Part shown: piece after piece, positions 26,338 to 28,794 of the stretch
How positions within the stretch are numbered: the first letter of the stretch is position 1
How the letters are laid out: each line of letters begins with the position of its first letter
Source of the DNA: Candidatus Saccharimonadota bacterium
Lineage (GTDB): Bacteria; Patescibacteriota; Gracilibacteria; BD1-5; UBA2023
Reading direction: 5' to 3'
Assembly: GCA_046350815.1 (NCBI GenBank)
Contig: JAXLZO010000001.1
Location: 450,001-482,000 of the forward strand
DNA: 32,000 bases
Notes under the pieces: model-generated
Databases searched by the model: none
What the model was told of the DNA's origin: nothing
Seen by the model: only the letters and a program-made list of their open reading frames with translations
Made by a program: the position numbers and the translations under genes

Positions 26338-26946
26338 TTATTTAAAATTATTCCACAAATCAAATTCGAGATTTGAATCCTCCGGTTTTGATTGGGATTT
26401 TAGTATATTAGCCTCCTTGTCTGACATGCCTACTATCTGAGCATGTTTTACTAGGTCTTTTGGTAAGATAAATTCAGCATCTTTGGCAACCACTCCGGTA
26501 TGTACATACTTCGCTCAATCTTGCTTTGGTATATCGATATAGGATAATAACCCTTCGTATCAAAGTAAAAATGGTAGCGCTATTCCCTCAAGAGAGTTTG
26601 TATATGACGGATTAAGACCGACTTCATTTGGCCTATTTCCTCTCCATAGCCTAACATGATCATCCGCAATTGCAGGTAAACTTTTTTTGATTAATGTTGC
26701 TATTCGTATAATTTCTCTCATTCTCGGCGAGTCAGAACACGTATCATCATTGGTTCTTATAAGCTTTCCATCCGCATCTATTTGAATATCAATCATTATA
26801 TGATGACTATCATTTTGTATTAACTGAAAAATACTTGGATGATTTTCATAAAGCTTATTTCTGATCTTATTAATTAATGGATCAGTTGAATCACTGATTT
26901 CAAGTGGTTCTTGGGTCGTTAGTGATATCGGTTTTTCAAATTTCAT
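26338..26946 (-). CDS. Soluble 202-aa protein of unknown function, last gene of the pilin-like operon; weak ADP-ribosyltransferase-like motifs
   Basis: ATG 26944-26946. TGA at 26560-26562 and 26515-26517 are read as Gly. TAA 26338-26340. No signal peptide or TM segment. Motifs: VRLWRG, SYTNS, DAEFILP. Confidence 0.7.
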
Positions 26947-26975
26947 AATCGTTTTGGTAAGGTTTACATTATTTT

Positions 26976-27452
26976 CTATTGACCGCCCAATTGGTATACA
27001 AAATTAATGACTGCATTCATGAGTGGATAGGAGAATATAAGTACAATCATTCCAATAACCGACCATTTAACAGCGTCTTTTCCTTTTTTTACCTTTTGAT
27101 CATTTCCAATAGAACTCGCCATATAAGCACCACCCATAACTAATCATCCAATAGCAAGAAGCATACCAAACGCGATGAGCCTGTCTACAAAATGCTTAAT
27201 TCGTTCTCTTCCTCCTCAAGAAAGAGAGGCATCACCAGGATCTTTTGAATTCACAAGATTTGTTGTATATTTTGTATTTGTTCATCCAGCAAGACAATCA
27301 TCTACATTTGTGACAATGGTTTTTCCACTATTAAATCCACATTCTGCAAATACTCTATCAGAGAAATGAATATTTGATGATAATCAGATTCCAAGAAGAA
27401 TTCCAAGGGATATAAGAAAAGAGCGGGAAAAAGAGATAGCGTGAGTATGCAT
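26976..27452 (-). CDS. TrbC/VirB2-like (T4SS-pilin-like) membrane protein, paralog 4 (158 aa)
   Basis: N-terminal signal/TM segment, then two C-terminal TM helices flanking ...GGAYMASSIGNDQKVKKGKDAVKWSVIGMIVL... TAG 26976-26978. Confidence 0.65.
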
Positions 27453-27463
27453 AAGAAGAGTAT

Positions 27464-27898
27464 TTATCCAACCTGAAACCGAGAGGCAACTTCAACAAGC
27501 GTGTAGGAAAATGAAATGATGAGAAAAGCAATTCATGAGTATATCATGCCTTTTATTGCTTCTGAATGTTTTTTTGGATCTCATTCACTCGTGAAAAGTT
27601 CATATGAGCCGTAAATAAACATGGTGACTGCGATAAACATAGATGCCATGAGTACGTAGCTAGTAATTACTGAGAGAAAACTATTTGCAGTTTTTCCTTC
27701 AAGATCGTTTTGATAATTTTCTTCTTGTGCGCTACTAAGAGTGAGTTCAGTATTCATGTTCTTTTGTTGTTCGTTCAGTACAGCAAAAACTATGTTGCTT
27801 CATCAAAAAATGGAAATACCAGTAATGTTATTAAAAAAATTTCCGAAAGAGCAGAGAATGAGAATGATGAGAAATATTCTCGAGAAGATATGGTACAT
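27464..27898 (-). CDS. TrbC/VirB2-like (T4SS-pilin-like) membrane protein, paralog 3 (144 aa)
   Basis: ...VLMASMFIAVTMFIYGSYELFTSE-G-DPKKHSEAIKGMIYS-G-IAFLIISF... ATG 27896-27898, 2 nt after the upstream stop. TAA 27464-27466. Confidence 0.65.
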
Positions 27899-27900
27899 AT

Positions 27901-28290
27901 TTATACAGAGAGAGAATTAACAATATTGGCGATTGTGTAGGCTGATGTTGCAATGATTACGCCGATAATAGTATAGAGCAGTGTACTCTTGGCTGTCTTC
28001 ACTTTTTCTTCATTTCCCCATGAAATCAGATAATAAATACCTGCCCCAATCATACTAAGAACCGCAAGAGCAAGTACATAAGGAATGATCCCAAGGATAG
28101 ATTTTGCAATTGCTGAAGTGATACTTCCATTATCATTAGGATTTGTGCTAGTATACTGTTCAAATGGAAGTCAAATGGTGACAGGGTCGGTAACATTACC
28201 AGCTCAGAACGCTATTCCAAATGAGAGCGTGAGAAAAAATATACTCACGATGGAGAGGAGAAGGTGACGTGCAATTGGAACTATTTTCAT
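27901..28290 (-). CDS. TrbC/VirB2-like (T4SS-pilin-like) membrane protein, paralog 2 (129 aa)
   Basis: Checked codon by codon. Signal peptide MKIVPIARHLLLSIVSIFFLTLSFGIAF, then ...ILGIIPYVLALAVLSMIGAGIYYLISWGNEEKVKTAKSTLLYTIIGVIIATSAY... TAA 27901-27903. Confidence 0.7.
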
Positions 28291-28293
28291 AAA

Positions 28294-28794
28294 TTAAGCA
28301 GCAATAAGATAGAGAATAACTCGTATGAGTCCATTTGAGAGGAGAGCAATGACAAGTGCAGATCAGCAGGCGATAAGCATTGATTTCCCTTTTTCTGCTC
28401 GATCGGTATTTCCGGAAGAGGTGACCATGAGAATACCAGCAACAGCAGTCATCACGAGACATCCGAGCGTGAGAAGGTTCAGGATAGTTCTTGCGGCTAA
28501 TCATCAGAGTGTCTTTGCATCTTTTTCTGTATCCCCTGTAGAATCAACTCATGTTGCAGTAAGGCCTTTCCCAAGATATTCTCCCGGTTTGAAAGTAAAA
28601 TTCGTCGACATAAGATTATCTTCTGGAAGAGGAGCCTCAGCATACATTCTATTTTCATGAGTAATACTACTGATGAAGAGCATCCCAAAAATAACGAGTG
28701 CTATACAGAAAAAACGCAATCCCGTTGTCGGTTCTCTCTTCGTGAAGCGTTCTGAAAAATATTGAAACATAGATACTTTTGAATACTCTATCAT
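28294..28794 (-). CDS. TrbC/VirB2-like (T4SS-pilin-like) membrane protein, paralog 1 (166 aa)
   Basis: ATG 28792-28794. N-terminal TM segment, then ...ILNLLTLGCLVMTAVAGILMVTSSGNTDRAEKGKSMLIAC-G-SALVIALLSNGLI... TAA 28294-28296. Confidence 0.65.

Follow-up and report, generated by a model that had tools for sequence, protein, structure and literature searches.

A minus-strand gene array read with TGA as glycine

The stretch of DNA analysed here (the window) comprises 32,000 nucleotides of contig JAXLZO010000001.1 (positions 450,001 to 482,000, assembly GCA_046350815.1) from a member of the Gracilibacteria. Five genes, called g1 to g5 in their reading order, lie closely packed on its minus strand: g1 (28294-28794, 166 aa), g2 (27901-28290, 129 aa), g3 (27464-27898, 144 aa), g4 (26976-27452, 158 aa) and g5 (26338-26946, 202 aa), with intergenic gaps of 3, 2, 11 and 29 nt. 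The products of g1 to g4 are diverged paralogs of a family named after the pilins of type IV secretion systems (T4SS). The product of g5, an accessory gene downstream of g4, is soluble. NCBI annotates the five genes as U0518_02505 to U0518_02525 on a 1,283,673-nt contig of a Candidatus Gracilibacteria metagenome-assembled genome (MAG) and holds exact copies of g5 (U0518_02505), g4 (U0518_02510, our P0086) and g1 (U0518_02525).

All genes of the window were read with translation table 25, in which TGA encodes glycine. This table yields 93 open reading frames (ORFs) of at least 80 aa (18204 aa in total), as compared to 38 (5160 aa) with table 11, and its ORFs reproduce the tightly packed genes and the gaps of the original prediction, which had been made from the letters of the sequence. 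That the standard code shows almost none of these genes was also correct, since each of them contains in-frame TGA codons (four each in g1, g3 and g4, two each in g2 and g5). Direct evidence for TGA=Gly is found within the operon. Codon 106 of g3 is TGA, and its aligned column is the glycine of the S-x-G-[ND] loop motif, which is Gly in all four paralogs. Codon 129 of g5 is TGA as well, and the commonest residue of its column among the displayed homologs of the family alignment is Gly. In many public copies of database homologs of g1-g4 (P0088-P0112), Trp stands at positions that are Gly in the window, a result of translating TGA with table 4 and not with table 25; this lowers apparent identities and may weaken matches to hidden Markov models (HMMs). 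The start of g1 differs by pipeline, being placed at 28875 (193 aa), 28794 (166 aa) or 28770 (158 aa, NCBI, Met9). A Shine-Dalgarno-like GGGGTGAT is found immediately upstream of the ATG at 28794.

T4SS_pilin (PF18895) is the top Pfam family for each of g1-g4, and all four exceed its gathering score of 26.6 bits, with 30.5 (E=3.8e-7), 29.7, 28.5 and 27.6 bits, respectively. The HMM search against the Pfam pilin families, proposed with the original prediction as a check, was hence passed by four of four for the T4SS-pilin family. The database copies of g1 and g4, and P0096, a protein 97.7% identical to g2, likewise have PF18895 as a precomputed match. In NCBIfam, the top match of all four is NF045849, the 'Mbov_0395 pilin-like conjugal transfer protein' of a Mycoplasma integrative and conjugative element. 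The scores of 15.7 to 29.7 bits (29.7 for g3; E=3.7e-7 to 9e-3) are below the curated cutoff of 40 bits and point to relatedness rather than membership. Of the affiliation to TrbC/VirB2 (PF04956), which had likewise been proposed, less remained: only g2 matches (17.9 bits, E=0.0037), and none of the four reaches the cutoff of 27.9 bits. Remote homologs retrieved with a profile of the four proteins bear both PF18895 and PF04956.

The predicted common architecture was found in all four proteins. Hydropathy reveals one N-terminal and two C-terminal hydrophobic segments in each, and together with the alignment this gives a signal or transmembrane segment, a variable region, a helix, a lysine-rich S-x-G-[ND] loop, and a second helix. 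The four loop strings quoted in the original prediction are all present, namely SSGNTDRAEKGK in g1, SWGNEEKVKTAK in g2, SEGDPKKHSEAIK in g3, with its Gly encoded by TGA, and SIGNDQKVKKGK in g4. The first hydrophobic segment closes with a [V/M/L]-[F/W/Y]-Ala motif, which is conserved in orthologs and may be a signal-peptidase site; cleavage is likely to occur at MYA|EAP in g1 and at VFA|ECG in g4. Just after this motif, in the variable region, g4 orthologs share a conserved pair of cysteines, which might form an extracytoplasmic disulfide. Identity of g2-g4 to g1 is 21-22%. The earlier view that the paralogs are highly diverged and do not stem from a recent duplication holds, each being conserved separately.

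Conservation and structure of the pilin-family proteins

The array was compared to six related metagenome contigs (L004, L005, L006, L031, L032 and L033; the relatives). In six of six, a 714-aa protein, SecG and a 134-aa membrane protein are encoded on one strand, and the four pilin genes, followed by a 315-aa protein and then RNase J, on the opposite strand. Every database homolog of g1-g4 falls in one of four orthogroups; the duplication therefore is old and all four copies have been kept. Identity and omega were computed per segment against L005 and L006. The C-terminal 80 aa of g1-g4, which comprise the two helices and their loop (the hairpin), are 84-96% identical with an omega of 0.016-0.17, as compared to 37-72% and 0.18-0.51 for the N-terminal halves. 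For single proteins, the C-terminal 80 aa are 91-93% identical in g2 (omega 0.035-0.038), 86-94% in g3, of which the N-terminal half reaches 37% only, and 94-96% in g4 (omega 0.016-0.038). The g1 orthologs in L005, L006 and L033 are 77-80% identical. By these measures the hairpins are under strong purifying selection, and the N-terminal segments are relaxed or diversifying. Family assignment, architecture and conservation support the view that g1-g4 are genuine conserved members of the VirB2-like T4SS pilin family PF18895.

Divergence is uneven along the locus. When positions 10001-14673 of L033 are compared to 22034-28794 of the window, identity is 95% for RNase J, 97% for g2 and 89% for the 315-aa protein, as compared to 77%, 70% and 67% for g1, g3 and g4. 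The pilin genes thus change, by divergence or recombination, at a much higher rate than those around them, and the mosaic suggests recombination or rapid diversification of single pilin genes. In L004 (11132-11888) the g3 and g4 frames are in several pieces, by assembly error or pseudogenisation; they are intact in the near-identical L005.

This mosaic, together with the fast divergence of the N-terminal segments, would fit four alternative major pilins, one for each host or condition, serving host-range or immune-evasion variation, as the literature proposes for the VirB2 paralogs of Bartonella and Anaplasma and for arrays of the candidate phyla radiation. We regard such a use of the genes as rather unlikely. 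The genes lie 2-11 nt apart and have neither promoter nor terminator signals between them, which speaks for joint expression. Every relative keeps all four 1:1 with strongly constrained hairpins, and no silent-cassette or inversion features were seen. Due to the 1:1 retention and the close spacing, g1-g4 probably are co-expressed and non-redundant and not spare alleles. The combination of almost frozen hairpins and fast N-terminal segments speaks for subunits that assemble together, are non-redundant and expose a variable surface.

We consider it likely that g1-g4 are long-diverged VirB2-like pilins of the Patescibacteria T4SS, polymerised by a T4SS encoded elsewhere, and that g5 is not part of this system. 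The remaining doubt is mostly over whether g1-g4 form a filament at all, and several observations weigh against it. The margin above the PF18895 cutoff is only 1-4 bits, and the family name 'T4SS pilin' is an annotation label with a putative function. According to a 2025 review, a pilus of PF18895-type proteins has not yet been demonstrated (PMC12857230). The pilin profile matched no PDB sequence. AlphaFold2 models g4 as a helix (79-113), a four-residue loop (114-117) and a second helix (118-156), at low confidence (mean pLDDT 62), and Foldseek returned no significant match for this model (best E 0.5). The match of highest probability (0.87) was 8dfu, the conjugation pilus of Aeropyrum pernix (target TM score 0.65, root mean square deviation 2.6 A over 69 columns, E=1.9), and other helical hairpins, such as rod and needle proteins of type III secretion systems, score near it. 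The predicted structure is thus compatible with a pilin and does not decide the question. The absence of VirB4, VirB6 and VirD4 from the 32 kb, noted originally, was borne out: none of these families was detected by Pfam or NCBIfam in the sizeable ORFs of the window, four large ORFs of which match no family. Likewise, no gene of VirB4, VirB3, VirB6 or a type IV coupling protein (T4CP) turned up in the 32 kb or, in the relatives, at up to 10 kb from the array. Finally, a promoter scan gave nothing above background, with no minus-strand consensus promoter upstream of g1.

Some of these observations would also fit small, Sec-inserted membrane proteins that are anchored by two helices and show a variable surface segment, with an adhesin-like or envelope-structuring role. 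The Pfam scores are barely over the cutoff, hydrophobic hairpins bias such matches, many other weak membrane-family matches occur in the same Pfam table, and the structural matches are not significant. The array has no T4SS neighbour, its neighbours being SecG and a membrane protein without family, and VirB6 homologues are reported to be absent in Gracilibacteria (Quinonero-Coronel et al. 2025, Microb Genom, PMC12102498). We nevertheless find it unlikely that g1-g4 are proteins of this kind. Four proteins of about 21% identity all pick PF18895 first in Pfam and NF045849 first in NCBIfam. Conservation peaks in the hairpin, including its S-x-G-[ND]-x-x-K loop, and not in the displayed segment, a pattern expected for a polymerising subunit. 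Moreover, relatives in the family are located within genuine T4SS clusters, and the 2025 review describes as essential the pilin array of Southlakia epibionticum ML1, which has six genes of divergent sequence (Wang et al. 2023, cited in PMC12857230).

The fifth gene

As predicted, g5 lacks a signal peptide and a transmembrane segment; it has no hydrophobic segment at all (maximum Kyte-Doolittle value 1.26). Its supposed place as the operon's own final gene and conserved partner of the pilins did not hold. Of the 4+1 gene order, which was to be looked for in relatives, the four pilin genes with their order and flanks recur in six of six, whereas g5 is missing from the array in all six, including some with a 95% identical RNase J. 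It directly follows g4 only in contigs that are about 98% identical in DNA (L022, L026-L029). In a comparison to L004-L006, DNA homology breaks off at 26983, where g4 ends, and sets in again at 25561, a point 61 nt ahead of the next conserved gene. By these comparisons g5 is a recent insertion in a species-level lineage, accessory to the array and not a conserved part of it.

The IS200 element that had been noticed beyond the operon's last stop codon is a 662-bp segment on the plus strand (25675-26336; tnpA 25754/25829-26248), identified by its Y1_Tnp domain (E=2.1e-34) and by an empty site. L026 and L029, whose flanking DNA on either side is 98% identical, lack the segment, which assigns it to IS200/IS605. 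The empty site puts it 1-2 nt past the g5 stop codon, at a junction that is ambiguous over 6 nt. In L022, a contig at strain level, the sequence breaks off 23 nt beyond that stop. That g5 is cargo of the IS200 was ruled out, as strains carry g5 without it. Since g5 is found only in the ~98% identical contigs, and L026 and L029 among them lack the IS200, the array of four genes is the oldest part, g5 was acquired in the species-level lineage, and the IS200 was added last, in this strain. Terminator-like and inverted-repeat scans revealed a GC-rich 8-bp hairpin, CCCCCTGT-TCT-ACAGGGGG (26315-26333), with T-runs on both strands. It belongs to the IS200 end, which rules it out as the operon's own terminator; lying now 4 nt past the g5 stop, it could terminate the operon transcript. 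No hairpin is found in the 29 nt between g4 and g5, and g5 is probably transcribed by read-through from the pilin promoter.

The search for homologs of g5 gave 85 matches with a word-indexed method and 141 representative clusters when run exhaustively. Homologs that stand alone occur, scattered and in unrelated contexts, in MAGs of Saccharibacteria, Peribacteria, Berkelbacteria, Paceibacterota and Doudnabacteria. Outside the lineage of g5 itself, no pilin-like ORF was found near the homologs in L001-L003 and L007-L021 (15 genome loci), with a lineage-trained HMM that could miss very distant pilins, and none of the called genes around the homologs in L023-L025 belongs to a pilin family. The closest stand-alone homologs (55-61% identity; L001, L007, L008, L023, L025) lie near a tyrosine recombinase of 270-273 aa, which is directly adjacent in some of the loci and one gene apart in others; the outer flanks differ. 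Such a pattern points to a small mobile unit or to a hotspot of recombination. In a Saccharibacteria MAG (L016, 884-4386), the gene of a 134-aa homolog precedes by about 1 kb that of a 697-aa T4CP-like ATPase (TrwB_AAD_bind, T4SS-DNA_transf, TraG-D_C and a zinc finger), with a TfoX_N gene between the two. A further pilin array (L034, 409-5279) consists of a 431-aa T4SS_pilin+NLPC_P60 fusion, two TrbC + T4SS_pilin proteins and a 117-aa pilin. The gene that comes after it on this strand encodes a 351-aa Fic-domain protein, a second case of an enzyme-like gene 3' of an array.

The original prediction suggested that the multi-pilin array and its soluble partner could be a minimal surface-filament or contact-dependent delivery module. 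In this reading the five genes would be one dedicated 4+1 module, which works without a classical T4SS and in which the soluble partner would be a chaperone, tip factor or cargo. Co-transcription is likely, given the common strand, the 29-nt gap and the absence of a hairpin between g4 and g5. The window holds no T4SS genes, a Fic-domain gene follows another pilin array, and one g5 homolog lies close to a T4CP-like ATPase. Against these points stand the absence of g5 from an otherwise identical array in every relative, the break of homology with L004-L006 exactly at the end of g4, and the lack of pilin genes at the examined g5-homolog loci outside its own lineage, several of them beside a tyrosine recombinase. 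In Patescibacteria it is also common for pilin arrays to be located far from virB4 (PMC12102498). As a conserved module the 4+1 arrangement is largely refuted, and we hold a dedicated module of this kind to be highly improbable. Nor is a self-contained filament or delivery module needed, because multi-gene arrays apart from virB4 have already been described, with 441 arrays known and T4SS parts scattered in Gracilibacteria (PMC12102498).

The g5 family itself is strongly conserved. In the family alignment, a core of about 100 aa is near-invariant, RLWRGNR-x2-E-x5-S-Y-T-N-S-L-E-G-I-A-L-P-F ... Y ... S-E-F-x-L-P (in short, RLWRGNR..E..SYTNSLEGIALPF..Y...SEF.LP). For g5 there was no significant match in Pfam, NCBIfam, PHROG, PADLOC or PDB sequences, the last searched both with the single sequence and with a profile. 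The conserved core of 44 family members matched no Pfam model, and a few members carry unrelated accessory domains (DUF5872, AsnC_trans_reg). Weak YopJ matches (E ~0.1) were dismissed as chance; they fall on residues 15-61, which are not part of the conserved core.

The AlphaFold2 model of g5, a confident one (pLDDT 86.9, pTM 0.81), found nothing significant by Foldseek in PDB and BFVD (best E 0.25, TM score <0.3). Its weak matches are rich in ADP-ribosyltransferase (ART) folds, namely Tpt1 (probability 0.51), C3larvin, cholix toxin, PARP10/14, ExoS and phage ARTs. R102 and T116 are invariant and S114, S118 and E158 nearly so, and these residues lie on successive predicted strands. The order of Arg, Ser/Thr and Glu would be that of the R / S-T-S / E triad of ARTs. 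The modelled fold resembles that of ADP-ribosyltransferases only weakly. ART models of Pfam gave no match in the 44 members. An identity with ART-PolyVal (PF18760) was rejected, as it matched neither the 44 members (E up to 1) nor the concatenated cores of 30 giant proteins described below.

In about half of the 141 representative matches, the g5-type core is internal to proteins of 700-6044 aa. Thirty such giant proteins carry InPase, ART-PolyVal, LPD22, LPD38, Acb1, portal, SLT or tail-lysozyme domains; ART-PolyVal is found in three of the 30, elsewhere than in the g5-type core. The concept of polyvalent proteins of phages and conjugative elements is said to go back to Iyer, Burroughs, Anand, de Souza and Aravind (2017), and we take InPase, ART-PolyVal and the LPD families to be Pfam families of such proteins. 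By its recurrence in very large phage and conjugative-element proteins the g5 core qualifies as a polyvalent-protein-associated domain, and it looks like an undescribed one. The core is common to g5 and polyvalent proteins, whereas g5 is a stand-alone protein of 202 aa on a bacterial chromosome, with a core that matches no Pfam model. Conserved as it is, the family may merit a description of its own.

It is conceivable, and in our judgement very unlikely, that g5 is an enzyme-type effector or anti-defence domain, possibly NAD-using, which was captured 3' of the pilin operon, is co-transcribed with it and is delivered by the T4SS into the host, the arrays acting as landing pads for exchangeable cargo. 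This idea draws on the likely co-transcription, on the occurrence of the core in polyvalent proteins that are thought to be injected, on the Fic gene of L034 and on the T4CP-like ATPase of L016.

Surroundings, proposed assembly and known systems

Between g1 and the 134-aa membrane-protein gene lies a divergent intergenic region of 58 nt (28795-28852), the presumed promoter region. At 28835-28862 there is a TTGACA-16-AATTAT site for the plus-strand gene, and the g1 promoter would lie in the same 58 nt. The 134-aa protein (28853-29257, plus strand) is polytopic and without family; its orthologs are 80-83% identical (omega 0.13-0.15). It is syntenic in all relatives, as is SecG (29214-29441, plus strand; PF03840, E=3.7e-12), and the two genes, as called, overlap by 44 nt. 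A 177-aa minus-strand ORF opposite them (28859-29392) was ruled out as a gene, given SecG and a conserved membrane protein on the other strand; some pipelines call an ORF of 177-197 aa there, on the pilin strand. On the other side of the array, the 315-aa protein (24553-25500, minus strand), weakly metallopeptidase-like (Pfam Peptidase_Mx1), directly follows g4 in the relatives, and RNase J (22034-24433) comes after it.

The remaining genes of the window are mostly of a housekeeping kind, including a rhodanese/UPF0176 protein, RuvA and malic enzyme besides RNase J and SecG. A complete rRNA operon (467-6886 with tRNAs; 16S 467-1994, 23S 2399-5353, 5S 5544-5659) is followed by tRNA-Val(TAC), tRNA-Arg(TCT) and tRNA-Val(GAC), at a distance of about 20 kb from the array. 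Three further proteins belong to type IV pili or surface-protein systems and not to a T4SS. These are a type IV pilin-like protein (21097-21603, plus strand), which has an N-methylation motif, a 307-aa fn3 + Big_5 protein (20016-20939, minus strand), with a weak LPXTG-anchor match below cutoff, and a 186-aa protein (16149-16709, minus strand), of which the hydrophobic N-terminus is prepilin-like. Four large (676-825 aa) secreted or membrane-anchored proteins (8237-10267, 11470-13911, 16716-19193 and 29505-31649) match neither Pfam nor NCBIfam. One of them, of 714 aa, is next to SecG in all relatives.

If g1-g4 are pilins of a T4SS encoded elsewhere, their assembly can be pictured as follows. 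Each precursor would be inserted via Sec by its N-terminal signal or transmembrane segment and cut after [V/M/L]-[F/W/Y]-A, leaving a mature protein of about 100-120 aa with a fast-evolving, presumably extracellular N-terminal segment and the conserved two-helix hairpin. While the pilin sits in the membrane, the Lys-rich loop would face the cytoplasm. A VirB4-powered T4SS would then extract the subunits and polymerise them into a pilus or conduit contacting the host bacterium, with the variable N-terminal segments as the exposed surface. All four subunits would be used jointly, either as major and minor pilins or in a heteropolymer. The fifth gene would be a stand-alone copy of a polyvalent-protein domain that landed recently downstream of g4, the IS200 having followed later. 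A tidy 'operon' can thus mislead, its soluble fifth gene being a recent hitch-hiker.

Among known systems, the archaeal Ced/Ted conjugation-type pili, to which 8dfu belongs, share with g4 a helix-loop-helix pilin and an organism without outer membrane, and they provide its most probable structural match. This match, however, is not significant, stems from a low-confidence model and has no counterpart in sequence similarity. The TrbC/VirB2/TraA pilins of diderm T4SS (PF04956) resemble g1-g4 in the long leader, the two hydrophobic helices, the short basic loop and the small size; g2 matches them weakly and remote homologs fall in both families. In contrast to these pilins, g1-g4 score below the PF04956 cutoff and come from a monoderm host with no adjacent virB genes. 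Moreover, their mature forms are longer by a variable N-terminal extension of 25-45 aa and give no evidence of cyclisation or acetylation.

The closest likeness is with the VirB2-like arrays of Patescibacteria. Among 3035 Patescibacteria genomes searched with PF18895, PF04956 and other profiles, 2417 have VirB4, and in 1948 assemblies that also have VirB4 VirB2-like pilins were found, near virB4 in 1135 of the 1948 only (PMC12102498). The same study lists 441 VirB2-like arrays of 2-11 genes in 383 assemblies, with a mean identity of 25%, and states that in Gracilibacteria the TrsD and VirB3 homologs are mostly not beside virB4 and that VirB6 was not detected. The distance of the array from other T4SS genes is as expected for Gracilibacteria. 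With four genes 2-11 nt apart and 21-22% identity, it falls under the definition of that study (at least two pilin genes in tandem or one gene apart, of low identity). It shares with the published arrays, of which the 'Sec secreted array' of Nanosynbacter lyticus TM7x is a known example, the PF18895 family, the tandem genes, the conserved hairpin and the frequent location apart from virB4; within-array identity is about 21% here. In another contig (L030), a two-pilin array is located among gyrA and tRNA-synthetase genes.

The array differs from those described in its host, a code-25 member of the Gracilibacteria, a class said to be less rich in arrays than Microgenomatia or Saccharimonadia. 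It further differs in its housekeeping setting (SecG, RNase J and the rRNA operon 20 kb off) instead of a T4SS cluster, and in the accessory gene and IS200 appended in this strain. As arrays of this kind have already been published for Patescibacteria, the locus changes nothing known in kind. The role of T4SS and pilin arrays is an open question in how ultrasmall Patescibacteria live on other bacteria. To this question the locus contributes a clean code-25 Gracilibacteria case of four ancient paralogs fixed gene for gene, and it offers concrete targets for structural or genetic work.

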